NCBI GenBank assembly: GCA_041661265.1 | Contig: JBAZUT010000001.1 | Span: forward strand, 129,854 to 193,853 | Direction: 5' to 3' | Source: Minisyncoccota bacterium | Lineage (GTDB): Bacteria; Patescibacteriota; Minisyncoccia; JAHIHE01; JAGLIN01 | DNA length: 64,000 nucleotides | Shown here: positions 21,182 to 62,255 of the stretch, piece by piece | Layout of the letters: each line of letters starts with the position of its first letter | How positions within the stretch are numbered: position 1 is the stretch's first letter | The notes under the pieces: model-generated | The model's database searches: none | What the model was told of the DNA's origin: nothing | Seen by the model: only the letters and a program-made list of their open reading frames with translations | Translations under genes and position numbers: made by a program

Positions 21182-22237
21182 TTACAATGCCGCATTCTTC
21201 ACTTCTTCTTTTACGGCTTTGTATATTCCGGCGACCAGCTCACTCGTCAGCTTTGGATTTTCTTTGAGGTATTTCCTGCTTGCTTCATATCCCTGTCCGA
21301 GTTTTTCGGATCCGTAGTTATACCAGGCGCCGCCCTTGGAAACTATATTGTATTTTACCGCTGTGTTCAGAACGTCTCCGAAATATGCTATCCCCTCGTT
21401 GTGCATCAGATCGAATTCGGCGATCTTGAATGGAGGAGCGATCTTGTTCTTGACCACTTTGGCCTTGACCCTGCTTCCGATCACATTGTCGCCCTGCTTT
21501 ATTTGGGCGGACCTTCTCACTTCTATCCTCACCGAAGAATAGAATTTGAGCGCGTTCCCTCCGGTCGTCGTTTCGGGATTTCCGAATACGACTCCGATCT
21601 TCATCCTGATCTGGTTTATGAAAATAACGGTGGCATTCGATTTGTGGACGATGCTGGTGAGTTTCCTGAGCGCCTGGCTCATGAGGCGGGCCTGAAGACC
21701 CATATGAGAGTCGCCCATCTCACCTTCGATCTCCGCTTTCGGAGTCAGCGCCGCCACCGAGTCGATCACGATCAGATCCACTGCGCCGGACCTGACCAGA
21801 GCTTCAACGATCTCGAGAGCCTGCTCTCCGCTGTCCGGCTGCGAGATGATAAGATCGTTTATCTTGACGCCTATCCTTTTGGCATATTCCGGATCAAGAG
21901 CATGCTCCGCATCCACAAACGCCGCTATGCCTTTCTTTTTCTGGAGCTCCGCGATGACATGCAGTGTCAGCGTTGTCTTTCCGCTGGCTTCCGGACCATA
22001 CACCTCGATTATCCTTCCTTTCGGGATCCCTCCGCCGAGAGCTATATCCAGCGAGATCGATCCTGTCGGAATAAAATCGATATCCATGGTCCTTGCTTCT
22101 CCAAGCTTCATGATGGACCCTTCTCCGAACCTGCCCTTTATTTCATCAAGCGTGTCATTGATGATCTTGTCTTTCTTGTCTTTTTCTTCTGTCGACTTCT
22201 TTTCTTCCGCCAGCTTCTTTTTTTCTTCTTTTGCCAT
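21182..22237 (-). CDS. recA: recombinase RecA (with ~25-aa KE-rich N-terminal extension)
   Basis: Walker [21 protein letters not shown], and L2 region [35 protein letters not shown]. Confidence 0.95.
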
Positions 22238-29100: not shown

Positions 29101-32100
29101 CACATATCCGTTTCCTTCCGGCGCCTTAAAGCTGTATGTTCCGTCCACTCCGCTTATTGTTTCATTAAAGGTTCCGTTTCCCATCAGTTTCACAAACACG
29201 TTAGACAGCTCTTCTCCGTTGTTATAACTTGAGCTTCCATTCGCGTCTTTGTACACCCGGCCTTGGATCGTATAGAAATTTCCGGTTCCGGTCAGGGAAG
29301 GCGAGAAATTAATATTTGAAGCGCTTGAAGTGGTGATGGTCACCGTTTGTTCTGCCAGCTGTCCGTATTGCGGCAGGAATGATCCCGCTCTCCAGGTGCC
29401 GGCGGAAACATACAATGTATAATTTCCGGAATTATCGGTCATGGCATTGGCATTTCCCGGACCATCGGTGCGATAAGCATACACTGAGGCACCCTGCACG
29501 ACGTTGGTTCCGTCGATTACCTTGCCGGAAATCGTATAATCCGGTTTAGCGAGCTTCAGAACGAAAGTCGTTAACGCCGTAGCGGGAGCGATTCCAACAG
29601 ACGCTCCATCGATGTAGAGATAATTGGTTGCATGTCCGCCTTTGGTCGTATCGCTGTTTACAACTACCGACACTTCTTTCGAAGAAGGCATGCCCGGCAC
29701 AAACGCGCCAACCACATAACTGCCATCAACTACGTTCAAAGTGAAATTACCGCTCGAATCGGCCTGAGCATGGGTTCCGAATCCGCCGGTTGGCGAATAG
29801 CCGTATACTTCGGCATTCGCGATGACTTTGTCGGATCCGTCTTTCACCACGCCTTTGATCGTCTTATCGGAAGAGGTTAAGGTAAACGCTATCGTTCCAT
29901 CATTCGCCGTTCCATTATTTTCCGTAACCGTCGCTCCGCTCACATTCACATTCACGGGCTGAGGAGGAAGATAATTCGGCGTTGGAGGCGGACCGGACAT
30001 CGGGCCTTTGGGCATTTGAGGGCCGGTTCCCACGAACCACTGTCCGTCGGAAAGATACAAAGTGGCGGATCCGGATCCTCCTCCGTTCAACGTTATTTGT
30101 TTGACCCTGAATCCGGTAGACGAACCGGCAAAAACATCCAATGGCGTATTGGCCGGACCCGTGATATTCACTGTAACCGCCGTTCCGCTTGAAGCGCTCG
30201 TGAGAGTAAAGTCATAGGTCGTAGGAGTTGATGTAACGCGCACCATTTCCGGCATAGATTTGCCAAGATAATCCGCTCCGTCCAAAGTAATGGTTTGATC
30301 GGTGAATAGCATGTAATCTCCGCTGGGCAAATTGGGGAAACTATAAGCTGCCGAACCGCCGCTGAAAGTAGCAGACGCGGCTTCCATGGGACCTGTCATT
30401 GGCGACATCAGGAAAACATTCATCGTGCCGGCGTTGGCGCTGCCCGCGGTGATCGTGCCCTGCAAAGTGTTGCTTCCGCCGGACTGAATAAAGAATGGCT
30501 GCGACGTTAATGATTCAATAACGGTTGAACCGTCGGCTGACTTAGTCTTGATGTCGACGGTGTAGCCCGAAGTGTCAAATCCTTTCGGCACGGTCGAGTT
30601 CTTTATGCTGGCTACATCGATTCTTAAGAAATCAAAGCCCGTGACATTTGTAGCCGCCGAAAGATAGATGGTTACCGTTCTGGCCGAAGTGTTAACCACT
30701 ACGCCGTCACCTGCAAGTCCTCCCTGGGCCGTTCCGGTGTCGTCGGCATTGAGAGTTCCCGAACAGGAAGCGCCTGTCGGAGCTCCGGCAGTTGCGCATT
30801 TGAATGTCGGTGCGCCTGTGCCGGGACCGTTCAGATCCGTTCTCATCGGACTGTTAACATCTTGCTTGGCATTCGTTACGTCAAAACCGCTCGGGAAAGT
30901 GAGAACGATCGATCCGCCCGCCGGAATTTGGCTGGAGATCGGAAGATCGACTCCGAAAATCGTGGTCTGCCCGGCCATCATGTTGAATGGCTTCACCATG
31001 ATCGGCGGCGCAAACCCGAATGTGCTTGAAGAGAAATTGGTCGGCACGAATCCTCCGCCATTATCAAACGCGCTTCCTCCCATGGCCATTGGCCCTAGAG
31101 CGCCTTTGGTGGTCATGCTGTTTTGGATCGTAGCGCGGGCGGAATTTCCGGTTCCTCCCATGGCCGTACCAGACAAATCTTTAGCGCCAGTGCCGAGGGC
31201 TACATATAATTCCTGCCCCGCTGCAACGCTAAGATTCAATCCTTCGATCATTACGGTGTTGGTAACAGAATCATACTTGAAGGTGGCGCTGGTCAGAGGC
31301 ACTGCGGTTCCCGCAATTGCCGGATCGAATACAGCCGTCCCGTATTTCACCGTGGCGTAATTAGACGGATTTATAACACTGGCCGCCCAATTAAGCGAAT
31401 CCGTGGCTTTTGCAGAATTCATGGGCTCGGAGAATGAAATTGCAGCGGCATAATCATCAGCGTTCATAAAAGTGACTGTCGGCACAGAGGAATCCGCCGC
31501 ACCGGTGGTGAAATTTCGCGCCACCGCAGTGGCTATGGCAAATCCGTTAATTCCGGTTACGCCCGTAGTAACATTTATCGTGTAAGTCGTATTCGGATTT
31601 AGCACTGATTTCGGTATGAAATAAGCTTGCCGGTCCAGCCCTCTGTAATCCATCGTGCCATTGATCGCCGTCGAGCCGATAGAAACATAAACCGTGGAAG
31701 TGGTGATGGTCGAAACATCCATATCCTTGCTGAAGCTCATGCTTATCGCCCCAATATTGACCGGCACGGCAGTGGCGCCATTGTCAGGATATGTTCCCAA
31801 TACCGTAGGTGCGATAATATCAGACGTGGTGCCGGTTTTGAAATCCGACATGAACATTGGGAAGGATGCCTGATCGGGAGGAGCGATGGTCATGCCATTC
31901 GCAGCCTTTGCCCCGCCCAGGACCTTCAAACGATAAGATGTGCTGGCGGCAAAAGTTCCGGAGTTATAGCCCGCCGCCAAAGTGACCGTGGAAACCATCT
32001 TGGCGTTATCAAGAGAGACGGTGCTAATCGCGCTTGAAGAAACATCCGTTTCCGTGGTGCCGCTTACAGTATATAATTTCACATTGTTCTTTAAGAGATA

Positions 32101-35100
32101 TCCTCCCCCGTCATCCGCCATCGGATCAGAGAAATTGATGACGATTTTCATGTTAAGCGGCACGTCAAACGAACCGGGAGCGGGCATTACTCCGTTCACA
32201 TGCGGAGGCACAAACGCGCCTGATCCGAAAGTTCCACCGCCTTGCAGAACTCCTCCGGAAAATGTCGCAGTCGAACCTGTCGTAAAGAAAAATACATAGC
32301 TTCCATCGGACTGATTGCCCTGGATCGCGTTGCCTGCCGTATCTGTCACATTGGGAGTGATCTTTACCGCAATATTCTTATTGTCGCCAAAAGTGTTTCC
32401 GCCCGTAAATGACCAGACGGCCAGATTTGAATCCGGAGGCAACGGCGCGGATGGCGGAGTAGTATAATATGCCCAAGCGCCTTTGGTGCTCGTGATATTG
32501 GTCAACTCACCGGTGGACATATTGACTTCATTGACCGTCATATTTCCGGCGGCCGTAATGGAAGTCTGACTCATTTCTTTGTTAAATGCTGCAAAAATCT
32601 TGAAATTAGTATCTCCGCCAGGAATTCCAGTTGATCCATCCATTGGTCCGTTCCATTTTATGCGCGGATTGGTGAGATCGCCTCCAAAGCCTCCTCCCCC
32701 GCCCTGTCCGAGCTGAAAGTTAATGCCGGAAGCGCCCGCGGGAATTCCATTCATCATACGATCAGCAAAACCTTCTTTAAAAGCAACCAGATCATAGGTG
32801 CCGGCAAATAATTTACCAGCGCCAATGGTGAAATTGCCGTCAGCGCCTGTTGCCGCCGAGAGGAATCCGGTGCCTTCGGCAAAAATATAAGCGCCTGCAA
32901 GATTGTTCGGCGTAGGAGTGGCTGAATCTTTTATGTTTCCCATGATATTGGTGCTGTTTCCTGCAGTAACAGAGGTCAATTGGAACGGATTACCGCTCAT
33001 ATCTTTCATCTGCTGGGTATTTGTTTCGTCAGTAGCTTCGAGGTAATACCTCACTATAGTATTTGCCGCTCCAACTGTTGCGGATGGAATCACATGTCTA
33101 TAAAATCCTCCTCCCAAGTGTGAGCCATTATGATTGGAATCGCTCACGTATGTCGGAGTACATCCGGATCCGGCGCAGTAATAAAGCTTGCTGGATAGAG
33201 CCGGCGTTGAAGAAGCGTTGGCAAAATTATCCATTACGCGGACAATGACATCAAGATTGGTGCTGGCCGCCGCCTGGAAAATAGGGCGGTGCATGATGTT
33301 TGGCGGCATCGTATCGGAAGCGGCTGTGACGGTCGTAAAACCGCTGGTGCCGGTTGTTTCCAATGCAGTTAAACTCCCCACGTTCGCAGAAGTTATAGTA
33401 GACATTAGTTCCGCATAGGTCTTTACGCGCCAATAATAAGCAGTATTCGGATTAAGAGGAGCTGGTTGTGTCAAGATCAGGTATTGTCCCGCCCCATAGT
33501 TTACGTTGCAGCTTGAAGCATTGCAATGACTCGCGGTTTTGGGAAAAGTGTAATCCCAAACCGTGGTACCAGTAAAATCAGAAGCGGTATTTACAGTCAG
33601 TCTATAACTATTAAATGTGGCATTGTTTGAAGGGCCGAAATTGAAGTTTGGCGGAATAGGAATATTAGTGGCATTGTTCGACGGAACAAACAAGCTCAGA
33701 CCGCTTCCAGAACTTGAATATACACCGAAGCCATTCGGCATTGTCACGACTTCGCCGCCTGTCGTGACTCTGACATCGCGACTTCCATCTGTGGCATCAG
33801 CCGTGATTGTGACTGGGAAACTTAAATTAGTAGCACCAGTGGAGCTGACCGTACCAGCTGTCGCATTTGTGTCGTTAGTACTAGTACCGCTAAGCAAGAA
33901 TTGCACTGTGCTTGAAGCTGTAAAATGAGTATTTGAACCGGTTATCGTAACAGTAAAAGGAGAAGAGCCTTTTGCTCCGCCTCCTGGAGTCACCATGTTA
34001 ATCCCGGGAATTCCTCCGCCGCCGGAAGGCGCGACGTTGATCTGGAACATTTTCTCTCCATCTACCGCGCTATCCGTAACCTTGATTCTTATTGTGTAGC
34101 TTCCCGGCGCATTGGCAACGGTACCCGTTATTTTGCCGCCATCAGCTCCGCTTGCCACGAGCGTCAAACTAAGACTTGCCAAAACGTCGATGGCGTATTG
34201 ATCAGCCGCAGCCCATGTGTATGTGCCTGTGGCACCGCCAGTCGCCTCCAAAGCTACCAAAGGAGTAGTGGTATTATAAACCGTTCCAACTGTAGTTGAA
34301 GGAATATTGGTAGTGGTAATCGTAGGCGCATTGGTTAAATTGACGGCTAAAGTGCCTACCACATTTCCACCCATATCGACAATGGCATTATTTGCCGCGG
34401 CGATCGTACTTATACCATTTCCGCCATCCGCAAAATCGCCAGAATCCAAATTTCCATTTAAAGTAACGGTCGCAAATTCCATTCCGGGATTATGAGTAAC
34501 GCTTGAAATCGTGTGTCCGCCTGTTGTTCCATTGTCGATAAAAGTAAACGAAGCCGCAACCAAACTTCCACCGCCTGATTTTTGCACCGACTTACTGAAC
34601 CTTACATTCACAGCAGCAGAGCCTGAAGCTCCGGTGGCTTTTACGATCGTCGCAGGAGCGGTGTCCGCCTTCAAATCATTGGTAGTGAAAGTGGAAGCGC
34701 CATTATTTCCGTCAGAAGTAACCACGCCAGTAGTCGCCGGAATAGCGGCAATAATACGATCATCATCGGCAATAGTGCCTGATGTTTTAATTACCACATA
34801 GAAAAATGTTTCGGTCCCATTAGCTAACGCCACCGGAGTAGCCGGCGTTAAAGTGATGCTGCTGGAAGACCAGGCCGGAGATCCTCCCAAAGTTACAACC
34901 GCATCTCCCGCACCAAACATGCCGGTATTTCCGCCTCCGGCATCATCGTATAAAGCAACGCCTGAAGTATTATTAGTGGCAATCGCCGCCAAGTCAGAAG
35001 TGCCAAACCCCGTACCGCTGAAATTCACAGTAACTGAAGTTAAAGTTTGACCGGCTTGCGACGCGGTTACGCCGACTCTTAACATAGCAGTCGCTACTGA

Positions 35101-35295
35101 ACTTGCCGGTATCGGAGAACCGGGCATCTGGGTTGGCATTCCCTGGGTTGAAAAAGTAAAAGTCGAAGCCGCCCTCGCCGCCGGCACGAGAACCAAGAAC
35201 TGCAAACCCAATGACCACACCAATGTGGCCACGAGGAGAAAAGACGCAAAAAATTTCTTCGCGCCCTTTTTTATTTCTTTCCTTGTTTTTTTCAT
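26200..35295 (-). CDS. giant secreted surface protein (3031 aa): signal peptide, many Ig-like / carboxypeptidase-regulatory-like beta-sandwich repeats, FN3 domain, duplicated GYKWSDVKVVS module, two C-terminal SH3b domains
   Basis: Signal peptide FFASFLLVATLVWSLGLQFLVLVPAARAAS. Recurrent SGNYTLYVSAGTW / DSSGNFTLNVVDGSY (CarboxypepD_reg-like). FN3 at LSATAASSSSINLSWTVTSGATSYDIYRSA...YYYKITALNSSGES. Two SH3b domains at GWILGSYTSV and GWVSKDY. AAGGAGA RBS. Confidence 0.85.
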   Translation of the reverse strand: MKKTRKEIKKGAKKFFASFLLVATLVWSLGLQFLVLVPAARAASTFTFSTQGMPTQMPGSPIPASSVATAMLRVGVTASQAGQTLTSVTVNFSGTGFGTSDLAAIATNNTSGVALYDDAGGGNTGMFGAGDAVVTLGGSPAWSSSSITLTPATPVALANGTETFFYVVIKTSGTIADDDRIIAAIPATTGVVTSDGNNGASTFTTNDLKADTAPATIVKATGASGSAAVNVRFSKSVQKSGGGSLVAASFTFIDNGTTGGHTISSVTHNPGMEFATVTLNGNLDSGDFADGGNGISTIAAANNAIVDMGGNVVGTLAVNLTNAPTITTTNIPSTTVGTVYNTTTPLVALEATGGATGTYTWAAADQYAIDVLASLSLTLVASGADGGKITGTVANAPGSYTIRIKVTDSAVDGEKMFQINVAPSGGGGIPGINMVTPGGGAKGSSPFTVTITGSNTHFTASSTVQFLLSGTSTNDTNATAGTVSSTGATNLSFPVTITADATDGSRDVRVTTGGEVVTMPNGFGVYSSSGSGLSLFVPSNNATNIPIPPNFNFGPSNNATFNSYRLTVNTASDFTGTTVWDYTFPKTASHCNASSCNVNYGAGQYLILTQPAPLNPNTAYYWRVKTYAELMSTITSANVGSLTALETTGTSGFTTVTAASDTMPPNIMHRPIFQAAASTNLDVIVRVMDNFANASSTPALSSKLYYCAGSGCTPTYVSDSNHNGSHLGGGFYRHVIPSATVGAANTIVRYYLEATDETNTQQMKDMSGNPFQLTSVTAGNSTNIMGNIKDSATPTPNNLAGAYIFAEGTGFLSAATGADGNFTIGAGKLFAGTYDLVAFKEGFADRMMNGIPAGASGINFQLGQGGGGGFGGDLTNPRIKWNGPMDGSTGIPGGDTNFKIFAAFNKEMSQTSITAAGNMTVNEVNMSTGELTNITSTKGAWAYYTTPPSAPLPPDSNLAVWSFTGGNTFGDNKNIAVKITPNVTDTAGNAIQGNQSDGSYVFFFTTGSTATFSGGVLQGGGTFGSGAFVPPHVNGVMPAPGSFDVPLNMKIVINFSDPMADDGGGYLLKNNVKLYTVSGTTETDVSSSAISTVSLDNAKMVSTVTLAAGYNSGTFAASTSYRLKVLGGAKAANGMTIAPPDQASFPMFMSDFKTGTTSDIIAPTVLGTYPDNGATAVPVNIGAISMSFSKDMDVSTITTSTVYVSIGSTAINGTMDYRGLDRQAYFIPKSVLNPNTTYTINVTTGVTGINGFAIATAVARNFTTGAADSSVPTVTFMNADDYAAAISFSEPMNSAKATDSLNWAASVINPSNYATVKYGTAVFDPAIAGTAVPLTSATFKYDSVTNTVMIEGLNLSVAAGQELYVALGTGAKDLSGTAMGGTGNSARATIQNSMTTKGALGPMAMGGSAFDNGGGFVPTNFSSSTFGFAPPIMVKPFNMMAGQTTIFGVDLPISSQIPAGGSIVLTFPSGFDVTNAKQDVNSPMRTDLNGPGTGAPTFKCATAGAPTGASCSGTLNADDTGTAQGGLAGDGVVVNTSARTVTIYLSAATNVTGFDFLRIDVASIKNSTVPKGFDTSGYTVDIKTKSADGSTVIESLTSQPFFIQSGGSNTLQGTITAGSANAGTMNVFLMSPMTGPMEAASATFSGGSAAYSFPNLPSGDYMLFTDQTITLDGADYLGKSMPEMVRVTSTPTTYDFTLTSASSGTAVTVNITGPANTPLDVFAGSSTGFRVKQITLNGGGSGSATLYLSDGQWFVGTGPQMPKGPMSGPPPTPNYLPPQPVNVNVSGATVTENNGTANDGTIAFTLTSSDKTIKGVVKDGSDKVIANAEVYGYSPTGGFGTHAQADSSGNFTLNVVDGSYVVGAFVPGMPSSKEVSVVVNSDTTKGGHATNYLYIDGASVGIAPATALTTFVLKLAKPDYTISGKVIDGTNVVQGASVYAYRTDGPGNANAMTDNSGNYTLYVSAGTWRAGSFLPQYGQLAEQTVTITTSSASNINFSPSLTGTGNFYTIQGRVYKDANGSSSYNNGEELSNVFVKLMGNGTFNETISGVDGTYSFKAPEGNGYVIKAFAPNIGELLPLASFNVAGNISNKDITVGATRTITFTFSSSVSEAFIEVFNNTGVGNKMRITNKTTATMSLPDGSYTVRVDVPGMPKSALTIAATDGNTTYNSSSELLTVNSDEGLTVTLPTLRTVSGTVTDGTNNLQNAWVEIGDPTTGVHFGTSTNASGAFSLQVVNSSSDYFVQAMKPGYVSDLANITVNTGVTDGNLASGTYTLAATSLTIQGQIKIGATGAANAFVRAEKQGGGFAGTQADTSGNYTLYVTAGSWKVYGVAEGYAEAAYTSNPIAITTASVTGKDITLTTQVTLSAPKSKPITPASGGTLEDTTAGVKITVPANALGSSTSAGNIQSKETNNVRQTSSSKPVKKYDSATGTYINAAKEIKASDSDGNPITNLNDSVTVEMTYSKAEMAATPSGSDASINTKAEADMLKMSYWDETNSNWVTLPSTITYKDASGTVMDSSTAGLTPSDTLSNVSTVLISAPTSHFSLYAPTSSTTGAPSTPSGLSATAASSSSINLSWTVTSGATSYDIYRSASSGGTFARIGSEPTVSSGSTTSYTDTGLSASTPYYYKITALNSSGESLPSSEVTATTSAAAAPAGGGGVSAPAITAVTGASISVAGGAASTAGAAVTLTLTATNATHMAISNTSNFDGVSWETFATSKGWTLTSGNGTKTVYAKFKDSAGVQSSVISDSITLGEAATPITETPTTETPAVSTPTTEPEGTLFKYSDSPKVYVVKNGNQVWIQTLEEFNAGGYKWSDVKVVSATVVKTVGSVTLLRAEGDNKVYVIHNNTRKHVKSAAEFNAAGYKWSDVKVVSVAELGTYAEGTPVEESTRVATITATTLRIRSVNSTTGKVLGFVKKNENYSVLEENNGWYKITTPSGKTGWILGSYTSVAGASATVEPAPSATGTLIITTKWLRVRSVNSTLGKTLAFTKEGETYDILGESGNWFKIKTAKGIEGWVSKDYAKKQ

Positions 35296-51166: not shown

Positions 51167-54100
51167 CTAATTATTTTCAAAATATGAAGACGCGTCCGAA
51201 TTGGTATTGTCAACGTCGATTATTTGATCGTTTGGATCCGCAATATTTGATTGGCTCTCAGTCTCATTTTTATTCAGCAATTCCTGCAACTGCGACTTAT
51301 CGACACAGACATCATCGACACATAACTTTTTCGTGGTAATCTTTCCGAATGTCCATTCCCCTGCCGTTGCAATAGTGCCGCTCAAAGACGTCAATGCATC
51401 TTTCACGGCACTTGCCACCAAATCTTTGAAACTCTGGTTCTGCCCGAGCGAGACGATAATTGCTTCGCCGCTAGAATCGATAATATTTCCACTTGGATTA
51501 ACTGCGAGCTTTAATTCTTCGATTTGTTTTTTCTGTTCCTTAATGGCATTTATCATAATAAAGGTCAAAGCATGAGAATTAAAATTAAACAATTCTGTTT
51601 CTTGTGCATCGTCCGAATGCAGTTTAGTCATATAACTACTGACCGTATATGGCGCAACATCTTTTATTTCCTGCGCCAAAACTCCGATATTTTCTTTTCC
51701 ATCTGCCGTAAAACCCGCTAATCCATTGTATTTATACCAAATAGGATTTATTTTTTCAATCACAGAAAGACCATCGCTAAAAGGCGTTATGTCTTTTTTT
51801 ATCCGCTCATCCGAAGCAATTGTCCATGTGTTCGTCGAAGGTTTGGCTGCCGAATCGGTAGAAAGCTGAAATTGATATGTCGGCGTCAAGCCGATACCAA
51901 CATATCCTGCATCAGTAATTCTCATTCTTTCTGATCGTGTCGTCCCCCCAGCCGCAGTTGTGGCAAACAGCATATAAGTTCCTTGTGCGGAATCAGTCCA
52001 GTTCTCCGCCGCTTTCATCATAATTACCGCTTTACTCCAGGCAGAAAATCCGGTAGCGCCATAACCTTTTGCCCCAAATACGCCTAAAAGATCATCAAGC
52101 TGACTCGCTGTCGGAGAAGCTTGTGTGCCGCGTGCCGAAGCACCATAAAATGACCCGGCAAAAGTTGCACCATAAGTAGTAGTATTTACAATCGCATTAT
52201 CTCCATCTTTTTGTATATCAAGACTATAAGCTGGCGTCGTAGTTCCGATGCCGACATTGCCTGCATTATCAATTCGCATTCTTTCGTTAGTTGCAGCAAG
52301 CCCGCCAGTAAAAAACTTAACAACGCCAGCAGTATTCCTCGATCCTAAGACAAGTCCTCCCGAATCTAAACTATCAATATAACTAGTATTCGCTGTCAAA
52401 ATGCCATTAGTTGTAAAAGAAGTATTTAAATGAAAAATATCTAACGCTTTATTACTATCATCTTCCGTCAAACGAAAAGTTTCATAAGCAGCAGTTCCTG
52501 CTGTCGCGTTTCTAACAGTCAAATAAGTGCCGGAGTTTTGATCCTTTTGCATATATAGAAGTGATGCTGGGTTTATGACCCCAATCCCCACATTCCCCCC
52601 TGCAAAGATTGCGGCATAATTATTTGTTCCACCGGTCGGAGTATCAACATACAATCCATAATTATTGGCGCTGGCGCCATTCCATGTTCCAGTGGAGGAA
52701 ATATAGGCGCCATATTTATTGATGGAGGCAGTGGAGGAAGTGGCTGTGTTGGCAAGATAAGCGCCATAATAGGCGGCGGTTTGAGCGCCAGAAGCGGAAA
52801 TGGATAATTTTTTATTCGTTGGGGCAGTATCGCCGATGCCGACATTGCCTGAATTATCAATTCGCATTTTTTCCGCATTGCCGCCAGTTGAAATTTTTAT
52901 AATACCGCTTGCATTATTAGCCATCAAATTCAAACCGGCTGCAGTTGAATATAAATAAGCATCGCTGGCCGCGATCGCTCCGAATGCTGTGGTTGATGCG
53001 GAATAAATGCCGATTTGATTTTGCAAACCCGTATCGTTTGATACTCTTATATTTGCAGAAGCCGCCGCGCCAGCCGTAGTATTTTCAACAAGAATTTTTG
53101 TAGAGGCGTTTTGATTTTTAATAATATGCAATATTTCAGTTGGCGCTGTTATTCCAATTCCAACCTTATCGCTAAAATACGCCGCAGCATTAACGCTGCT
53201 TCCGCCTGTTGGCGCGTCAACATATAAACCATACGCATTTGTACTTGTAGACGCGCTGGTTGCTATCTTTAATCCGTAAAGATTTGTCAGTGTTCCGCTA
53301 TTACCCTTTCCCGGAGGAGTAACAAGAATAGTAGCGGCGTCCGCAATATTTTCCGTACTGCTTCCGGCAGTCGGCGCAAGATTTAAGCCATACACGCTGC
53401 TGCCCGAACCTGGAGTAAGAACAGAAACTAAGCGCATGCCTACAGCATTTCCTGCAGAAGAGAAATTTGTAGATACGTTAAACAATGTAGTACTATAAAC
53501 TGACCCAAACGAAATTTGCCCCGATGCCACGTTTAATGCCGCATCCGGAGTCGCCGTTCCGATTCCAACATTTCCTCCGGCAAAAACTGCAGCGTAATTA
53601 TTTGTTCCGCCGGTCGGGGTATCAACATACAATCCATAATTATTGGCGCTGGCGCCATTCCATGTACCGGTGGAGGAAATATAGGCGCCATATTTGTTGA
53701 TGGAAGCGGTGGAAGAAGTGGCTGTGTTATTAAGATTGATTCCATAACTGGCTACTGTTGTCGCACCAGTCGGCTCAACATCTAACCAACCATCAGGCGT
53801 AATATCATTTATACCAACATATCCTGATCCGCGAATAGTCAGTAAATTTACTCCACCGACACGAAAATTAAAATGACGCGATGCGCCTTCTGCTGCGCCA
53901 AAACCAAAATTCATCACAGGATCAGTTCCATTTATAGATAGCGTAGAAACATTAACTATACCGGCACTAGAACTATTTGTAATGTCTATCAAACTAACCT
54001 GTGGATTAACTGATGATAACTGCAAAAGAGATGTCGGCGTCGCCGTCCCGATTCCGACGTTGCCATTCTCCACAATCAATCCATAATTATTCGTGGCTCC

Positions 54101-55768
54101 GGATGCCGAGAAATATCCACCGACGTTGGTTGTGCCAGCTCCGGTATTGACGGCGTATAATCCGTAATCGATTCCGACGGTAGCCCCTGACTGAGAAATA
54201 TTAAGAGCCTTATTTAAATCGGTAGTAGAAGATGAAGCGACCGAGAAAGCATTGCCAGTGCCTGTATAGGTTTGGGTAAAAGTTCCAGTTCCGGAAGCAA
54301 GAGAAAAATTAGAATTATTTTGCACAGTCACCGCACCATTGGAAGTCAGGCCGGAAGTGGCAGTAATGAGTCCGGAAATAGTTGGGACAGCAGTCCAAGC
54401 CGTGCCAGTAACAGTTAAGTTGCCGCCAAGAGTGGTAAGTCCGGTGCCGACGGTAAAAGTATTCGTACCCGTAACGGAAGTGGCGCCGTTCAAAGATACA
54501 GCGCCGGTACCGGTGCCGAAAGTACCGGTACCAGATATAGAAAAATTTCCTGTCGCTTGAGTATAACCGGCAATCGCTGCAATTTGACCGGAAGAATTAA
54601 CTTGAAATTGAGAAGTGGTCCCAACTGTAAATTGAGAATCCGGCACAGCATCGCCGATACCAACATTGCCATTAGCTAAAATCGTAAATGGATATTCAAA
54701 TGATCCTATAGCACCCGTTCCGACGTTTTTATGCATCACCTGCCAGCTACCGCTATTGTCTGCAGTTGTGGTCATAGAGTTTGTCCAGGAATCATTCAAA
54801 TCATTTCGTCTATACCATGTTAAATCACTGGCTTTAAAATAAGCATTTGCGGAAACATCAACATAGCCGTTTCCTCCCAGATTTAAAGACAGCATATCTA
54901 AAGATCCCTGAGACGTTCCAATGATAGCGTTCGTTTGCGCTGCTGTTCCGTAAACATGCAATTTTTCGCTTGGCGAAGCCGTGCCAATCCCCGCCCGACC
55001 ATTCAAAGCATCAATAGTTAAAGTATCCGAATCAACATTCAATGCATTGGCAACATTGGCAAGCGTCCAAGTTGAAGCGGAAGCAGCCGATAAATTTAGC
55101 GCGCCACTAGATGCAATGCTGGGAATTCCAGTCATTGCGCCGGCAGTAGAAATATCCCAACTTGAAGAATCAATCGCCACCGTGGCAGAATTATTTCCAA
55201 CAGTAGTGAGTCCGGTTGAAGAAAAGGTCGTGAACGCACCGCCGGCCGGAGTTCCGGACCCGATTGCGTCCGGCGCCGCCCATGTTTTTCCACCAAGCTG
55301 TTTCGCTTCAAAAGCCGCCGGCACCGCGCCAAGCGCTTTGCGAGGAGTCAACGTCTCCCATGAAGGCGTCGCTGCCGAACCCCCGACTTGCACTTCCAGA
55401 TATAAAGTCTGGTTGAAATTAACACTCGCTAAACTGGAAACGCCGCCTGCCAAAACACTGAATAACCCATTTGATACTGAAACTCTCTGATCAGTTCCCG
55501 TTCCATCACAAGTTGTTCCGGAATCCGGACTATAGCAAAGCGTTTCAATCCAAATCGGATCAGTGCCTCCGGCGCAATTCGATGCCGTGCAAAGTCGGAA
55601 TCTGATGTTGTATGATCCATTCGGAACACTGACGCCGCTTGTATTCGTCAGCTTTCCCTGATAATTGATTTTCTCGTTAAATGCTGCACGGACAACGTCA
55701 AAACAACCGAAAATCAAAACGGCTGCTAGCAAAACTAGAATAAATTTTCTATCGATACAGCTCTCCAT
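51167..55768 (-). CDS. 1533-aa secreted beta-rich repeat protein with C-terminal intramolecular-chaperone auto-processing domain (peptidase S74; phage tail-fibre / endosialidase-type)
   Basis: Signal peptide ILVLLAAVLIFGCFDVVRA. Internal near-identical 40-aa repeats (ASINKYGAYISSTGTWNGASANNYGLYVDTPTGGTNNYAA, twice). The C-terminal segment NTWTIASDERIKKDITPF...IGVLAQEIKDVAPYTV...ALTFIMINAIKEQ matches the S74 chaperone domain, including the SDxR(I/L)K auto-cleavage motif. Confidence 0.8.
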   Translation of the reverse strand: MESCIDRKFILVLLAAVLIFGCFDVVRAAFNEKINYQGKLTNTSGVSVPNGSYNIRFRLCTASNCAGGTDPIWIETLCYSPDSGTTCDGTGTDQRVSVSNGLFSVLAGGVSSLASVNFNQTLYLEVQVGGSAATPSWETLTPRKALGAVPAAFEAKQLGGKTWAAPDAIGSGTPAGGAFTTFSSTGLTTVGNNSATVAIDSSSWDISTAGAMTGIPSIASSGALNLSAASASTWTLANVANALNVDSDTLTIDALNGRAGIGTASPSEKLHVYGTAAQTNAIIGTSQGSLDMLSLNLGGNGYVDVSANAYFKASDLTWYRRNDLNDSWTNSMTTTADNSGSWQVMHKNVGTGAIGSFEYPFTILANGNVGIGDAVPDSQFTVGTTSQFQVNSSGQIAAIAGYTQATGNFSISGTGTFGTGTGAVSLNGATSVTGTNTFTVGTGLTTLGGNLTVTGTAWTAVPTISGLITATSGLTSNGAVTVQNNSNFSLASGTGTFTQTYTGTGNAFSVASSSTTDLNKALNISQSGATVGIDYGLYAVNTGAGTTNVGGYFSASGATNNYGLIVENGNVGIGTATPTSLLQLSSVNPQVSLIDITNSSSAGIVNVSTLSINGTDPVMNFGFGAAEGASRHFNFRVGGVNLLTIRGSGYVGINDITPDGWLDVEPTGATTVASYGINLNNTATSSTASINKYGAYISSTGTWNGASANNYGLYVDTPTGGTNNYAAVFAGGNVGIGTATPDAALNVASGQISFGSVYSTTLFNVSTNFSSAGNAVGMRLVSVLTPGSGSSVYGLNLAPTAGSSTENIADAATILVTPPGKGNSGTLTNLYGLKIATSASTSTNAYGLYVDAPTGGSSVNAAAYFSDKVGIGITAPTEILHIIKNQNASTKILVENTTAGAAASANIRVSNDTGLQNQIGIYSASTTAFGAIAASDAYLYSTAAGLNLMANNASGIIKISTGGNAEKMRIDNSGNVGIGDTAPTNKKLSISASGAQTAAYYGAYLANTATSSTASINKYGAYISSTGTWNGASANNYGLYVDTPTGGTNNYAAIFAGGNVGIGVINPASLLYMQKDQNSGTYLTVRNATAGTAAYETFRLTEDDSNKALDIFHLNTSFTTNGILTANTSYIDSLDSGGLVLGSRNTAGVVKFFTGGLAATNERMRIDNAGNVGIGTTTPAYSLDIQKDGDNAIVNTTTYGATFAGSFYGASARGTQASPTASQLDDLLGVFGAKGYGATGFSAWSKAVIMMKAAENWTDSAQGTYMLFATTAAGGTTRSERMRITDAGYVGIGLTPTYQFQLSTDSAAKPSTNTWTIASDERIKKDITPFSDGLSVIEKINPIWYKYNGLAGFTADGKENIGVLAQEIKDVAPYTVSSYMTKLHSDDAQETELFNFNSHALTFIMINAIKEQKKQIEELKLAVNPSGNIIDSSGEAIIVSLGQNQSFKDLVASAVKDALTSLSGTIATAGEWTFGKITTKKLCVDDVCVDKSQLQELLNKNETESQSNIADPNDQIIDVDNTNSDASSYFENN

Positions 55769-55983: not shown

Positions 55984-57336
55984 TCATACTACCCCACCGT
56001 CCATTTTATTTTTTTGTTTCTTTCGATCGCGCGGCAGTCGCTTTATGATCTTGTATAATATAATTATCAATATAAAAATGATAAGCGGGAAAATGTAGTT
56101 TGTTGGAGAAAAGCGGCTTTCCGGAGGTTTTGTTGTGATCGTTGGCGACAGGCTGCCATTTAGCGCCTTTATTATCCTATTCTCTTTGTCCAATAGAACT
56201 ATGGTTATGTCAAACGAACCTTCTTCTGAAAGCTTGATCGATGCAGAATACCCCCCTCCTTGTTCGTCTTTTTTCATCAAATATGAATATTCCTCATTCT
56301 CTCGAGTCAGGATTATCATGATCGAGCCAATCTCTTTTGGGATATTTGTCGAGTCAACAACAACAACGATCTCTTTCCCCTGATCGATCTCTATCCTTCC
56401 TCCTTCAAGCTTTATCGTTGAGCCGTCTTGAATAAAATTAAAATCATCGATCGTTATTTTTTCGATGTCCGGAAGTGTTTCTGGAGGCAAAAGAGGTTCT
56501 CCCGGAGGGAACTCAGGCCGTATTTCAGGCGGTATTTCAGGAGGACCTTCTGGTTTTTCGGGAAGAAGCTCCGGCTTTTCCGCAGCGGGTTTGTCGGGAA
56601 TCGCAGATGCAACCGCCCCTGAAGATATATCGTTGAATTCATCAAAAGAAAAAACAGTATAATAATATCTTGTTCCATTGATGAGATCCTCATCGACAAA
56701 AGATCTTTCTTTTCCTGAATATATTTCAAGACCCTCGCTTGTGTTTTTTGGATAAAATATTTCGCTTCTCTGGATAACGAGCTTGTCAAAATCCTGTCCG
56801 AAAGGATTATTCCAGGAAAGCGCTATTTTGGAATCCCCCGCAATTGCTTTAAGACCGCTTACATTTTCGGGAGATATTTTTTCAGAAAGCGTCTTGAAGC
56901 TATATCCGTCCTTTATTCCCTGGTTTCCGGCACTATCGGTTGATCTGATCTGGAAGTAATAAACGGTATTTCCCCCAAGATCTCGGATCTCGATCCTGTG
57001 CGATGAAACCAGGCTCTCCGCGTGATCCTCAAGAACGCCGATTTCATATGACAATGTTTTTCCATAATACAAATATGCCGAAGAGTTCTCGTTTGTTCTC
57101 CATCTTATATCCGCCCCGGTGAACGATATATCATCAATTTCAACTGCAAATATTTGAGGAGGATCTGAATCAATAATGGGGGCACCGCCTCCGGGATTTG
57201 CAACCTCTCCGGAAGGAACACTTGCCGAAATATTAACCCGATCCTCTTGGGCATCTGATATTTTTACTGCGAATGAACCGGGCAATAAGACTATTATAAA
57301 TATTTTTACCAGTAATTTGATCGATTTATTCCGCAT
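55984..57336 (-). CDS. membrane-anchored surface protein: signal peptide, FN3-like domains, Pro/Glu-rich linker, C-terminal TM anchor
   Basis: FN3-like PPQIFAVEIDDISFTGADIRWRTNENSSAYLYYG...TVYYFQIRSTDSAGNQG. Linker PEKPEGPPEIPPEIRPEFPPGEPLLPPETLP. C-terminal FPLIIFILIIILYKIIKRLPRDRKKQ. Confidence 0.7.
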   Translation of the reverse strand: MRNKSIKLLVKIFIIVLLPGSFAVKISDAQEDRVNISASVPSGEVANPGGGAPIIDSDPPQIFAVEIDDISFTGADIRWRTNENSSAYLYYGKTLSYEIGVLEDHAESLVSSHRIEIRDLGGNTVYYFQIRSTDSAGNQGIKDGYSFKTLSEKISPENVSGLKAIAGDSKIALSWNNPFGQDFDKLVIQRSEIFYPKNTSEGLEIYSGKERSFVDEDLINGTRYYYTVFSFDEFNDISSGAVASAIPDKPAAEKPELLPEKPEGPPEIPPEIRPEFPPGEPLLPPETLPDIEKITIDDFNFIQDGSTIKLEGGRIEIDQGKEIVVVVDSTNIPKEIGSIMIILTRENEEYSYLMKKDEQGGGYSASIKLSEEGSFDITIVLLDKENRIIKALNGSLSPTITTKPPESRFSPTNYIFPLIIFILIIILYKIIKRLPRDRKKQKNKMDGGVV

Positions 57337-57483: not shown

Positions 57484-58500
57484 TCATTGCGCAAGCTGAA
57501 CGTGTTTCTTGATGATCCATCTATTGTATTTTTTGATCAAAGTTGCTGAAGAGATCAGGATAATTATTATAAAAAGCGCCGAAAACAAGATCGCCTTCCA
57601 TGGAAAAACCCAAAAAACAAGCTCTTTTGAAAGAAACTTTCCGTTTCCGTTTCCATAGACTACATCCAATCGAGCCGTATATTTTCCAAAAGCAAAATTT
57701 CCAAAGTCATATTTAACTTCTTCAATGAATTTATTTACGGGATCTGACGAATATTTCAGATCATCCCCCCATTGTGACTCAATTTTTCTTATGTTCTGAG
57801 GAAGTATCCTGTTGTTCTTTGAATTGGCATCAAGAAGCACTGTCCTTTTTCCGAAAATGTTTTTTATTTCTATGTTCCCTTTCGGCCTGATGTGCACATT
57901 TCCTTGATTGTTCATCCTATAGACAAATTTAACAGGAAGACTGCTTAGCAACATGCTGCCATACTCCAAGTTGAAATTGTCAATCGAGGCGCTTTCTTTC
58001 ACATCGCCCGATACTTGAAGGAGAATGAGAGAGTTTATTTGCGATTGAATGCCGACGCCTGATTCTTTGTTTTCGTCAGCCTCCGTTACTCCCGTACTGA
58101 AATAGATCGAAGCATAATGACCTCCGGGATCCGCATCCGAAGGAATGTTAATCGTAAATATGAATTTTTTCGCGCTCTTGGGGCGAACTGCGATCTTGTC
58201 TTCGTTATATCTAATCCATCCCGCAAGATCGATATTCTTATCAGCTTCCACCGGAATAAATTTTTGATATCCCTCTTCTCCGGTCATTTCAAAATTCATC
58301 ACCCCGACAGAATATGTCCTTTCTTTGTCTGTTTCATTGTCAATGATAATCGATCTCTCTATGGCGACCCCGGGATCCACTGCAACGTCAATAACCGGAG
58401 GGGAAATCGAAACTGCGCTCGCTTCATGCTCCGCATTCAAAAGAATCGCGAAAAACAACGAGCTGCCTAAAATTATTTTCTTTATTTTGTTGAATATCAT
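57484..58500 (-). CDS. DUF916/DUF3324-like cell-surface protein (PapD-like fold family associated with WxL surface clusters), C-terminal TM anchor
   Basis: Signal peptide. SISPPVIDVAVDPGVAIERSIIIDNETDKERTYSVGV...PGGHYASIYFS. C-terminal TM WKAILFSALFIIIILISSATLIKKYNRW. Confidence 0.55.
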   Translation of the reverse strand: MIFNKIKKIILGSSLFFAILLNAEHEASAVSISPPVIDVAVDPGVAIERSIIIDNETDKERTYSVGVMNFEMTGEEGYQKFIPVEADKNIDLAGWIRYNEDKIAVRPKSAKKFIFTINIPSDADPGGHYASIYFSTGVTEADENKESGVGIQSQINSLILLQVSGDVKESASIDNFNLEYGSMLLSSLPVKFVYRMNNQGNVHIRPKGNIEIKNIFGKRTVLLDANSKNNRILPQNIRKIESQWGDDLKYSSDPVNKFIEEVKYDFGNFAFGKYTARLDVVYGNGNGKFLSKELVFWVFPWKAILFSALFIIIILISSATLIKKYNRWIIKKHVQLAQ

Positions 58501-59028
58501 AATATGCTTGAAACCACATAAGTTATGATCTGATCATAGCTTCCCGCCTGGGTCGCCGTAGAAATCGCAGTTTCGTGAGTGATCAAGGTCGTGCCATCGG
58601 TATCTCCCGTTCCCAGCATGTCGACATCCTGAGTTCCGTTGGAAGAGAAGATGACATCCATATTGGGTTCTCCAACGGGAATGGGAGTGTCGTCGTCGTC
58701 GAACGGCGATTGCTCAGTCCAGGTCGTAGCCGTTCCAGCTGCTCCGGCATTGGTTGGAGAAGCGACAGTAATTCCGTGGCCCTCGGTTCCGGCAGAAACC
58801 GTCCCATTTTCCGCGATATCGTCTATGTCGATGGAAGCAGAAGCTTGATTAAGCTGATCATCCGCCCAAAGTCCCACCTGAAATCCCGCAGATGTGCTTG
58901 CGCCGATCTTCAGTCTATACGAGCAGGAAGAAACAGAAGACGTGCTCAAGGTTCCCAGGGCGCAGGCATTGGTGTCGGCAGTTTCAGCTGAGTTTCGGAT
59001 GGCAAAGGTCAATGTTCCGGGAACTTCA
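58492..59028. repeat. 537-bp perfect direct repeat, copy 1 (3' ends of two paralogous genes plus downstream 5 bp)
   Basis: 100% identical to 59640-60176. The ORF-track nested ORFs at 58575/59723 and 58583/59731 are identical. Confidence 0.9.
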
Positions 59029-59615
59029 GCGCTAACAGTAACTTGATCATCATCGACTGTCGTTGTGATTGGAACATACAAGGTGCCCGTTCCGCCAAAA
59101 GTCCCGCTTGTTACTATACTATAAGTTCCCCCAGCTGTCGGAGTGATCGGCTGCTTATCAGCTGCTGCGGCTACATTCGTTCCAATTTTTATTGTTATCA
59201 CCGATCCGGAAGCAATAGAAACCGGGGTCGCGGCAGGCTGAGTAAAAGTTATTGCCGAAGCTGTAACTCCAACCCCGAGAGTGGAAGCCGCCGGACTGGC
59301 AGCAAGAGCGACGTCCGCAACGTCATCTATGAAATCAATGTCGGAAAAGTCCAGATCATTTCCGCTGCCATTTATATCGAAATCGCTTTGGTAGGTTATG
59401 ATCATTGTCTGATCGGCAGAACTGAATGCGTCATTTATGGTAAAGGTAAGAATTTGGCTGTGATTCTCGCTTGGACCGATCCTTGAAAGCTGGATCTGCG
59501 CCGAAGAGATCACCGCTCCTTTTGCCGTCTGAATCGGAGATGAAATAATGTTCATCGCAAAAATCAGCACGAAAATCATGGCCGAAGCAATGATTTTTTT
59601 TGTTTTATGATGCAT
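58497..59615 (-). CDS. secreted Thr/Ala/Gly-rich protein with conserved 177-aa C-terminal domain (paralogue 1)
   Basis: Signal peptide IIASAMIFVLIFAMNIISSPIQTAKG. The C-terminal 177 aa are identical to those of 59645-60394. Confidence 0.7.
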   Translation of the reverse strand: MHHKTKKIIASAMIFVLIFAMNIISSPIQTAKGAVISSAQIQLSRIGPSENHSQILTFTINDAFSSADQTMIITYQSDFDINGSGNDLDFSDIDFIDDVADVALAASPAASTLGVGVTASAITFTQPAATPVSIASGSVITIKIGTNVAAAADKQPITPTAGGTYSIVTSGTFGGTGTLYVPITTTVDDDQVTVSAEVPGTLTFAIRNSAETADTNACALGTLSTSSVSSCSYRLKIGASTSAGFQVGLWADDQLNQASASIDIDDIAENGTVSAGTEGHGITVASPTNAGAAGTATTWTEQSPFDDDDTPIPVGEPNMDVIFSSNGTQDVDMLGTGDTDGTTLITHETAISTATQAGSYDQIITYVVSSIL

Positions 59616-59639
59616 GTTGATTGATCAATGATTTATTAT

Positions 59640-60176
59640 ATCTTTTATAATATGCTTGAAACCACATAAGTTATGATCTGATCATAGCTTCCCGCCTGGG
59701 TCGCCGTAGAAATCGCAGTTTCGTGAGTGATCAAGGTCGTGCCATCGGTATCTCCCGTTCCCAGCATGTCGACATCCTGAGTTCCGTTGGAAGAGAAGAT
59801 GACATCCATATTGGGTTCTCCAACGGGAATGGGAGTGTCGTCGTCGTCGAACGGCGATTGCTCAGTCCAGGTCGTAGCCGTTCCAGCTGCTCCGGCATTG
59901 GTTGGAGAAGCGACAGTAATTCCGTGGCCCTCGGTTCCGGCAGAAACCGTCCCATTTTCCGCGATATCGTCTATGTCGATGGAAGCAGAAGCTTGATTAA
60001 GCTGATCATCCGCCCAAAGTCCCACCTGAAATCCCGCAGATGTGCTTGCGCCGATCTTCAGTCTATACGAGCAGGAAGAAACAGAAGACGTGCTCAAGGT
60101 TCCCAGGGCGCAGGCATTGGTGTCGGCAGTTTCAGCTGAGTTTCGGATGGCAAAGGTCAAAACCGCATCCTCTTCC
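59640..60176. repeat. 537-bp perfect direct repeat, copy 2
   Basis: See 58492-59028. Confidence 0.9.
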
Positions 60177-60394
60177 ATCTGCCTATATCCGGCTTTTATT
60201 GTATAATTGGCGCTATCTGATGATCCTGTTCCAACTTCACCCGCCGTATCCTTCAAGTTATAATTGGCACTTTGTCCGGAATCCACTCCGCCGATGTTGA
60301 CCGAATCCTTCTCTATTTTATAATTAGCGCTTTCCATGCTTAGTGCCTGGAAAGGTAAAATCAGGCTAAAAATTATTAAAATATATTTATTCAC
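59645..60394 (-). CDS. secreted protein with three N-terminal SANY.(I/L)K repeats and the shared 177-aa C-terminal domain (paralogue 2)
   Basis: Signal peptide ILIIFSLILPFQALS. Repeats ESANYKIEKDSV, QSANYNLKDTAG and DSANYTIKAGY. C-terminus TFAIRNSAETADTNACALGTLS...YDQIITYVVSSIL. Confidence 0.7.
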   Translation of the reverse strand: MNKYILIIFSLILPFQALSMESANYKIEKDSVNIGGVDSGQSANYNLKDTAGEVGTGSSDSANYTIKAGYRQMEEDAVLTFAIRNSAETADTNACALGTLSTSSVSSCSYRLKIGASTSAGFQVGLWADDQLNQASASIDIDDIAENGTVSAGTEGHGITVASPTNAGAAGTATTWTEQSPFDDDDTPIPVGEPNMDVIFSSNGTQDVDMLGTGDTDGTTLITHETAISTATQAGSYDQIITYVVSSIL

Positions 60395-61428: not shown

Positions 61429-61827
61429 ATGTATAAAATGATGCTTTCACAGCTTACGGAAAAGAGACTGATGGAAATTTTCCTGCTCTACGACAGGATA
61501 ATCGGAGGAAGAATAAGAGACTACGCGCTCATGCAGTCCTCCCCGCCCTTTGCAACGCATTTGGCATACATTAACAAACAATTCAGCTCAGGCAACGCGG
61601 CGGAATTCTGCTACGGCTCTAATCTCAATGGCGGAGAACAGAATACCAAACTTATAGTGTGGTATGAAAGCGGTCTCTATCAGGATAAAAAACTCACTGA
61701 TAAGCTGATCCGCTTCTCCTTTGATACGCATTCGATCGATACAGAAGAGTCGAGAAATATGCGGTCAGATTTTGAAGAAGCGGCCGATAAGCTTCTCGTG
61801 AAATGGGGCGTAAACATTGATCTATAG
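61429..61827 (+). CDS. hypothetical protein, paralogue 1 of tandem pair
   Basis: RBS acggaggaatcgtaaATG. Shares L.EKRL.EI.LLY..I.GG..R.YAL..SS.P.A..L.YI...S.G......GS.LNGGE.N.KL..W....LY with 61854-62255. Confidence 0.55.
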   Translation: MYKMMLSQLTEKRLMEIFLLYDRIIGGRIRDYALMQSSPPFATHLAYINKQFSSGNAAEFCYGSNLNGGEQNTKLIVWYESGLYQDKKLTDKLIRFSFDTHSIDTEESRNMRSDFEEAADKLLVKWGVNIDL

Positions 61828-61853: not shown

Positions 61854-62255
61854 ATGTACGGTATGAGACTTTCAGAGTTGAACGAAGAAAGACTAAGGGA
61901 CATCCTGCTTCTTTATGAAAAGATCGTCGGAGGGAATGTAAGACAATATGCCCTTCAAAGATCATCAGAGCCAATGGCATTGAGATTGGAATATATCCGC
62001 AACAATCTTTCCTGCGGATTACGCTTCGGTTCCAGTCTTAACGGAGGAGAAGATAATGCCAAACTTTTCTTCTGGCGGGAAAAACCGCTCTATGACGAGA
62101 CAACGAGAAAAAGGATCGACGAAGTCGTAAGAATCTCATTCGACCCGAATGTCGTGTCAGGCCCTGAAGCGGAAAAAATGAAAATAGACTTCGAAAAAGC
62201 GGTTGATGAACTGCTTTTGAAATGGAAAGTGAATATAGAGCTGAAAACGCGATAA
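61854..62255 (+). CDS. hypothetical protein, paralogue 2 of tandem pair
   Basis: RBS caggaggaaaaaATG. About 35-40% identity to the upstream gene over the full length. Confidence 0.55.
   Translation: MYGMRLSELNEERLRDILLLYEKIVGGNVRQYALQRSSEPMALRLEYIRNNLSCGLRFGSSLNGGEDNAKLFFWREKPLYDETTRKRIDEVVRISFDPNVVSGPEAEKMKIDFEKAVDELLLKWKVNIELKTR

Follow-up and report, generated by a model that had tools for sequence, protein, structure and literature searches.

Identical 3' ends of a tip gene and a shaft pilin gene in a probable Pam-like pilus operon point to recurrent gene conversion

The window analyzed here, a stretch of 64,000 nucleotides (nt) from a contig of the Minisyncoccota bacterium assembly GCA_041661265.1, contains two neighboring genes for proteins of 249 and 372 amino acids (aa) that have nothing in common in their 5' parts and share an identical 3' domain. 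In the reading that we consider very likely to be right as a whole, the two genes belong to an operon resembling that of the Pam pilus, with the smaller gene encoding the tip subunit and the larger one the shaft pilin; the gene pair is old, and the part encoding the C-terminal domain (CTD) of the pilin has recently been copied over the corresponding part of the tip gene. Comparison with the sequences of related genomes leads us to conclude that the identical ends are the product of recurrent, independent gene conversion, of which the window holds the most complete and most recent case.

The exact repeat and the two proteins that share it

A position-by-position comparison at an offset of 1148 base pairs (bp) gave one unbroken identical run of 514 bp (58499-59012 = 59647-60160) with both copies on the minus strand, and a repeat search of the window independently recovered the same pair. 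The first-pass annotation of this DNA had reported an identical duplication of 537 bp; the long perfect direct repeat stands, while the length and coordinates given for it overshoot at both ends, as mismatches are found within 58492-59028 at 58492-58494, 58496, 58498 and from 59013 on. An exact match of 514 bp cannot be chance. The copies are separated by a spacer of 634 bp, both reading frames are intact across them, and no third copy is present in the 64-kb window.

Each copy takes in the final 171 sense codons and one base, the first, of the stop codon, in the open reading frame (ORF) 58497-59615 (372 aa) and in the ORF 59645-60394 (249 aa), respectively. Identity ends within the stop codon. 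The tip gene has TAA at this place and the pilin gene TGA, which overlaps, in the form ATGA, with the ATG of the gene that follows. Identity starts at the first codon at which the two proteins can be aligned (…VPGT/LTFAIRNS versus …EEDAV/LTFAIRNS, the slash marking the boundary), and the 514 identical bp are therefore the entire homologous stretch of the two genes. The copy at 59647-60160 is thus the CTD-coding part of the tip gene, and the one at 58499-59012 the CTD-coding part of the pilin gene, which from the exact identity and its placement in a CTD tree (see below) is the probable donor of the conversion. Both genes encode secreted proteins, and the first-pass annotation was correct in describing them as surface-protein genes with unrelated 5' parts, which code for a Thr/Ala-rich β-domain in one and three SANY repeats in the other.

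The tip-pilin-like (PamT-like) gene (59645-60394, minus strand) encodes a signal peptide, the three SANY repeats and the CTD, and was assigned from its ORF and from NCBIfam. Its product lacks the DDDQVTVSA linker, a putative donor strand that is present in the pilin. It matches the NCBIfam model NF058579 CPR_pilus_PamT with E = 7.6e-16 and 58 bits, below the equivalog cut-off of 240, and the alignment, which covers residues 5-174, spans both the SANY region and the CTD; the protein also matches CPR_Pam_pilin_C. In an AlphaFold2 (AF2) model the CTD has a predicted local distance difference test (pLDDT) score of about 80 and the N-terminus one below 50, the structure of the SANY part thus being poorly predicted. 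The SANY repeats themselves (SANYKIEKDSVNIGG, SANYNLKDTAGEVG and SANYTIKAGYRQ; 60161-60340, minus strand) are conserved across homologues and lie within the PamT profile, and the first of them holds a partial donor-like motif, KDSVNIGGV.

The shaft pilin gene (58497-59615, minus strand) encodes a protein identical to NCBI MFA6096180.1, with a signal peptide, a β-sandwich N-terminal domain (NTD), the linker and the CTD. Its AF2 model is all-β, with an NTD of pLDDT 74-93, an isolated strand of low pLDDT at residues 191-196, and the CTD. From conservation and from the model we regard DDDQVTVSA (59028-59054, minus strand), directly upstream of the repeat boundary, as a candidate donor strand; among the 15 close pilins D188-S195 is invariant and A196 nearly so. 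Its position between NTD and CTD agrees with the description of PamA and PamB (bioRxiv 10.64898/2026.03.03.709456). Taken alone, the CTD aligns with positions 2-145 of the 148 in the NCBIfam model NF058581 CPR_Pam_pilin_C, with E = 7.8e-7 and a score of 29 bits, below the cut-off of 55.

Conversion tracts in related genomes

A protein search gave close homologues of both proteins, about 15 for the pilin and about 12 for the tip, and 13 related loci were fetched by protein look-up. Tip orthologues precede the pilin gene or the gene for a chaperone-like protein in 11 of the 13, and the other two (L006 and L011) begin too near the pilin gene to show a tip gene. The order tip, pilin and chaperone-like gene is found in all eight related genomes with both genes; where the contig reaches, the gene for a protein with FnIII domains and a transmembrane helix comes next, followed, again where the contig reaches, by a large gene, which in the window is tail-fibre-like. 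Across genomes the aa identity is 55-71% for the N-terminus of the tip protein and 67-80% for the NTD of the pilin. Both parts are thus conserved orthologues, and consequently the gene pair must be old. A metagenome scan with the pilin gave a short contig (L014) as the sole close match, the others being distant, and in a genome scan with an alignment the metagenome-assembled genome (MAG) C14-28 was the only close relative.

We then compared the tip CTD with the pilin CTD within each genome and recorded the identity and the longest exact run, using 128 between-genome pairs as contrast for the exact runs. The window has 100% nt identity with a longest exact run of 513 nt in this CTD comparison, and L001 has 95.1% with a run of 456 nt. 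They are followed by L007 (78.4%, 66 nt), L008 (77.1%, 26 nt), L002 (76.0%, 104 nt), L009 (75.4%, 21 nt), L004 (72.7%, 20 nt) and L005 (70.8%, 31 nt). The exact runs between genomes have a maximum of 35 nt and a median of 17, and this maximum is surpassed within half of the eight genomes (513, 456, 104 and 66 nt). The paralogues within a genome are accordingly more alike than the orthologues between genomes, and the likeness comes in discrete tracts with end-points. The pair is also older than the identity, with both genes in eight related genomes and CTDs of 71-78% nt identity in six of them. The suggestion in the first-pass annotation of ongoing gene conversion is therefore borne out by the diverged pairs of the relatives, at about 71-78% nt identity, taken together with the exact tracts, independent of one another, of 456, 104 and 66 nt.

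In L001 the identity breaks off abruptly some 50 nt short of the stop codon, and past the break the tail of the tip protein resembles that of the L002 tip (…AGNY…), which we take as evidence for a conversion end-point. The tract in L002 recurs in L003, an independent sample assembly, with 1 mismatch in 1961 nt. In a tree of CTDs the window pair is placed among the pilin CTDs of its relatives (P0005, P0011 and P0002; 85-88% aa identity), while the tip CTDs of the nearest relatives (P0027, P0026 and P0024; 68-71% aa identity) lie elsewhere, and the L001 pair is likewise inside the pilin-CTD clade. From this nesting the direction of conversion is from pilin to tip in both of the fully converted genomes. 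A recA gene is found at 21182-22237 on the minus strand (Pfam RecA, E = 5.5e-134), adjoining ftsK (23013-25427), showing that the genome has the core enzyme for homologous recombination.

A non-reciprocal homogenization of nearby paralogous segments, with tracts of variable length that end inside the homology and with recA present, resembles the RecA-dependent concerted evolution of the tufA/tufB type (kinetics in PMC5485169). The case at hand differs in that one domain of two otherwise non-homologous genes is concerned and in that the partners would be structurally interacting fibre subunits. Gene conversion on pilin genes is also known from Neisseria pilE/pilS, but there many silent cassettes serve to diversify an expressed locus, whereas here two expressed genes are made alike and cassettes are absent. 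A literature search turned up no published case in which subunit genes of a chaperone-usher-type pilus operon had undergone gene conversion with each other.

Some observations in the same material may be added. The GC content at third codon positions of the CTD in the two extensively converted genomes (window and L001) is 53-56%, or 10-15 points above the flanking gene parts, and this excess is smaller or absent in unconverted relatives; it may reflect GC-biased gene conversion, for a test of which the genomes are too few. In three related contigs (L013, 5001-6848; L027, 1-1628; L014, whole contig) the chaperone-like gene comes directly after the tip gene, and the shaft pilin gene is missing from its usual place. 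Of these contigs, two come from MAG C14-28 (GCA_029210775.1) and are 77% identical in nt sequence to each other, and the CTD of L013 groups with the pilin-type CTDs. A deletion between the CTD direct repeats, a genuine pilin-less operon where the tip docks on the anchor, and a collapsed repeat in the assembly are all possible explanations. In L005 (2615-4432; GCA_048632755.1) the tip protein is 605 aa long with a DUF2341/Laminin_G_3 (LamG-like) module fused before the SANY repeats and the CTD, and may carry an adhesin domain; a 23S_rRNA_IVP gene stands between the tip and pilin genes of this locus.

The identity could in principle have been made by the assembler or polisher, as a chimeric or homogenized duplicate of one true CTD copy or of two diverged copies. 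The source is a MAG contig of 283,647 bp for which neither reads nor a second assembly were available, and an exact repeat of 514 bp with a spacer of 634 bp is hard for short-read assemblers. However, assemblers break or collapse identical repeats and do not make copies of about 75% identity identical. Both frames are also uninterrupted, and the junctions coincide exactly with the limits of homology. L001, which represents another species in an independent assembly, has a 456-nt tract with a different end-point, and L002 and L003, which come from two samples, have the 104-nt tract in common. Since tracts are found in independently assembled relatives the phenomenon must be biological, and we consider an artefact quite improbable. 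Even less probable is a recent segmental duplication by which the pilin 3' end was copied onto an unrelated ORF with SANY repeats. Perfect identity next to unrelated 5' parts is what such a gene birth would leave behind, and the very recent duplication proposed in the first-pass annotation can be read in this way, but a tip gene with SANY repeats and a CTD of its own is present in all related genomes at the same position, with a CTD 71-78% identical in nt sequence to that of the neighboring pilin gene. In addition, the NCBIfam PamT model, built from distant Saccharimonadia, aligns over both the SANY region and the CTD, which indicates that the fusion of the two is ancient.

The constant 3' end and the different 5' ends, in a surface structure that could face pressure from host or phage, also brought up a programmed variation of the pilE/pilS or shufflon type, where interchangeable N-terminal cassettes are joined to a constant C-terminal module. 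Only two copies are present in 64 kb, both of them full genes with signal peptides, and we found no silent cassettes and no inverted repeats. The N-terminal parts are conserved orthologues across species with distinct structural roles, and the recombination that is observed homogenizes rather than diversifies, all of which leaves a cassette system, as earlier proposed, with a very small probability, on a par with that of gene birth. Least probable of all is that the shared domain is a WxL-type or other wall anchor and that the proteins are independent wall-bound proteins rather than pilus subunits. The 338-aa chaperone-like protein does match WxLIP_PGBD, a component of WxL loci in Firmicutes, weakly and below the cut-off (E = 6.3e-5). 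The 171-aa CTD, on the other hand, has no match to any Pfam family at E <= 10, WxL included, and the full tip and pilin proteins match none either. Thus the profile search against WxL that had been called for was negative, and an anchoring or wall-binding role of the domain gives way to the match with CPR_Pam_pilin_C, the donor-strand acceptor domain of Pam pilins. Moreover, the operon content agrees with the Pam description and the linker-like motif of the putative anchor protein (see below) fits an assembly by donor strands.

The operon and its relation to known systems

The operon comprises five genes, all on the minus strand, from 60394 down to 51167. After the tip and pilin genes follows the gene for the chaperone-like (PamC/D-like) protein of 338 aa (57484-58500, minus strand), a position that is kept in all related loci. 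Pfam and the sequence give it a signal peptide, putative Ig-like domains and, at the C-terminus, a hydrophobic and putatively transmembrane helix that is followed by KKYNRW; in addition to WxLIP_PGBD it matches fn3_5 (E = 6.7e-4), both below the gathering score.

The next gene (55984-57336, minus strand), a conserved neighbor in the related loci, encodes a PamR-like putative anchor protein of 450 aa with a signal peptide, a donor-like strand at the N-terminus, FnIII domains and a transmembrane helix at the C-terminus, as judged from Pfam (fn3, E = 2.6e-6, above the cut-off in two stretches; Pur_ac_phosph_N, E = 2.9e-6) and from the sequence. At the start of the mature protein the motif DRVNISASV (57217-57243, minus strand) is donor-strand-like by its likeness to DQVTVSAEV of the pilin linker, so that the N-terminus …EDRVNISASVP resembles …DDDQVTVSAEVP of the pilin. 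Linker-like N-termini are also present in seven PamR-like homologues, e.g. EDTVNVNALVP, DDQINVTASVP, DEQVTVSAYVS and QMN(I/V)DAYVD. When the six-frame translation of the whole window was searched with the pattern [DEQ]x[VMI][NT][VI]xAxV only two sites were obtained, the pilin linker and the PamR-like N-terminus; the pattern was defined post hoc, and the result is supportive rather than a formal test.

The last gene (51167-55768, minus strand) encodes a tail-fibre-like large surface protein of 1533 aa with a match to Pfam Peptidase_S74 (E = 1.4e-11). It contains an internal direct repeat of 211 nt with 83% identity (52581-52791 and 53559-53769), and the protein has two nearly identical segments of about 50 aa (…SSTASINKYGAYISSTGTWNGASANNYGLYVDTPTGGTNNYAA…). 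A promoter and terminator scan was uninformative.

The Pam pilus of Ca. Mycosynbacter amalyticus was described only in 2026, and its order of assembly is so far inferred from predictions (bioRxiv 10.64898/2026.03.03.709456). According to the same preprint, the pilins PamA, PamB and PamE have a donor linker between an NTD and an acceptor CTD of truncated Ig-like type, PamT is a tip subunit with a CTD only, PamC and PamD are chaperones with two Ig-like domains plus a transmembrane helix at the C-terminus, PamR has FnIII domains, a transmembrane helix and an extra N-terminal strand, and a tail-fibre-like gene is a conserved neighbor of the pam operon. The components of the window operon agree with these one for one: a PamT-like protein that has the CTD and lacks the linker, a pilin with a β-sandwich NTD, candidate linker and CTD, a chaperone-like protein with weak Ig-like matches and a putative transmembrane helix at its C-terminus, a protein with fn3 domains above the cut-off, a transmembrane helix at the C-terminus and a conserved extra linker-like N-terminal strand, and a Peptidase_S74 protein encoded directly downstream. 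Signal peptides are likewise common to all components, and so is a host from the candidate phyla radiation (CPR), as MFA6096180.1 (and also MFA6096181.1) is from a MAG annotated as Candidatus Paceibacterota. Most of the named homologues are from MAGs of Patescibacteria, Saccharibacteria, Nomurabacteria or Parcubacteria, and two weak or distant matches bear non-CPR MAG labels. It is therefore probable, though not proven, that the locus is a Pam-like pilus operon of a Paceibacteria-type CPR bacterium. It differs from the described system in its lineage, annotated as Paceibacterota and not Saccharimonadia or Microgenomatia, in a minimal content, with a single pilin (against three) and a single chaperone (against two), and in the absence of ATP synthase genes among the window ORFs scanned. 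The CTDs of tip and shaft are furthermore identical here, and the preprint is silent on gene conversion.

Two other systems invite comparison. With the chaperone-usher (Pap/Fim) pili the operon would share the logic of donor-strand exchange, where the cap has a groove only, the shaft has both groove and strand and the terminator a strand only, a likeness that we infer from the Pam structures and from the linker-like motif on the anchor. A Foldseek match to CfaB is weak (E = 0.046), with no significant match in sequence or fold. In contrast to chaperone-usher systems the locus has neither an usher nor an outer membrane, the chaperone appears membrane-anchored, and the donor strand would be an inter-domain linker instead of an N-terminal extension. 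The WxL loci of Firmicutes (WxL proteins with DUF916/WxLIP) resemble the operon in the chaperone-like protein, with respect both to the weak WxLIP_PGBD match and to the layout of signal peptide, Ig-like domains and C-terminal transmembrane helix, but the CTD has no WxL match and the WxLIP match is under the Pfam gathering score.

Several points weigh against the reading that we favor. The scores of the Pam hidden Markov models are well under the curated cut-offs (58 versus 240 bits and 29 versus 55 bits), and the AF2 models are moderate overall (pLDDT 67-68). With Foldseek both models gave only generic tandem Ig/β-sandwich matches in the PDB, with TM-scores of about 0.2, at which level the search does not settle a similarity to either Pam or chaperone-usher subunits. 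Exact look-ups of both window proteins and of P0001 in the contig collection returned no independent assembly of the window. Finally, a tract that reaches both edges of the homology needs either edges that were identical beforehand or several rounds of conversion, and the rationale of groove and donor strand is an inference. As to the searches themselves, sequence searches of the PDB found nothing in a copy from which the Pam structures are absent. NCBIfam gave no Pam match for the chaperone-like and FnIII proteins, nor for L029 and L033, two distant operons from Saccharibacteria and Nomurabacteria, and the curated NCBIfam Pam models appear narrow.

Outside the operon, two tandem paralogous ORFs of 132 and 133 aa (61429-61827 and 61854-62255, plus strand) are located just upstream of it on the opposite strand and have no NCBIfam family match. 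A direct repeat of 152 nt with 94% identity (15083-15234 and 17848-17999) comprises the start of a 182-aa ORF (17857-18405) and part of an 89-aa ORF (15005-15274), and looks like a truncated duplicate of the 5' end of a gene. Similarly, an 88-nt repeat with 89% identity (11412-11499 and 11983-12070) places a second copy of the 3' end of a ychF-like GTPase gene (10430-11500) some 570 bp downstream of the first. Two further ORFs are very large (26200-35295, minus strand, 3031 aa; 161-5032, minus strand, 1623 aa), and giant proteins, probably located at the surface, are plentiful in the window, a trait typical of CPR genomes. A search of the window for tRNA genes found none.

A possible course of the conversion and its meaning

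If the pilin CTD was copied over the tip CTD as proposed, homologous recombination of the RecA type would have done so along the whole homologous stretch, and the tract would then extend, as it does, from the first CTD codon to the stop codon. The grooves of the tip and shaft CTDs would both bind the pilin linker DDDQVTVSA, and the conversion may have been tolerated, and perhaps favored, because both grooves have to take the same strand; the replacement would be functionally harmless and may keep the two grooves matched. Since the linker lies just outside the homology, conversion would be unable to supply the tip with a donor strand, and the tip would stay a cap. A long identical tract, once present, would be expected to ease further exchange, which could explain a tract reaching both edges of the homology.

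According to a scheme proposed in the preprint (bioRxiv 10.64898/2026.03.03.709456), the tip would serve solely as an acceptor, the pilin as both donor and acceptor, and the anchor solely as a donor, with a membrane helix; the putative linker motif on the PamR-like protein fits this scheme. With a mature N-terminus that mimics the linker, the PamR-like protein would end the fibre and tether it to the membrane. The invariant linker and its mimic on the anchor lend indirect support to a filament that may assemble by donor-strand exchange.

One may go further and propose that the recurrent conversion from pilin to tip is a selected form of concerted evolution rather than a neutral process, matching the cap groove to the donor strand of the shaft pilin while the fibre evolves under pressure from host or phage, and relatedly that the 249-aa protein is a self-sufficient subunit. 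We hold this extension to be rather unlikely. The self-sufficient tip is suggested by the pilin-less contigs L013, L027 and L014 together with the KDSVNIGGV motif, and such a protein could either dock on the PamR-like anchor as a one-subunit adhesin or polymerize via its N-terminal extension.

Gene conversion as a process and the Pam pilus as a system are already known, and the picture of how such pili work is unchanged by our results, the value of which we judge to be moderate. Three points are new. A Paceibacteria-type genome, from outside the classes in which Pam pilins have mainly been reported, has a Pam-like operon that is divergent and minimal; the acceptor domains of tip and shaft genes have been homogenized recurrently, a point absent from the preprint; and the anchor protein bears a linker mimic, which supports the proposed step of termination and tethering. 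In practical terms, identical repeats of 0.5 kb at a distance of 0.6 kb can mislead both MAG assembly and the calling of orthologues in such operons. For the biology of these pili, the converted genes are evidence from nature for an acceptor domain that forms a module of its own and can be exchanged between tip and shaft subunits, as is predicted if the groove of the tip binds the linker of the shaft pilin.

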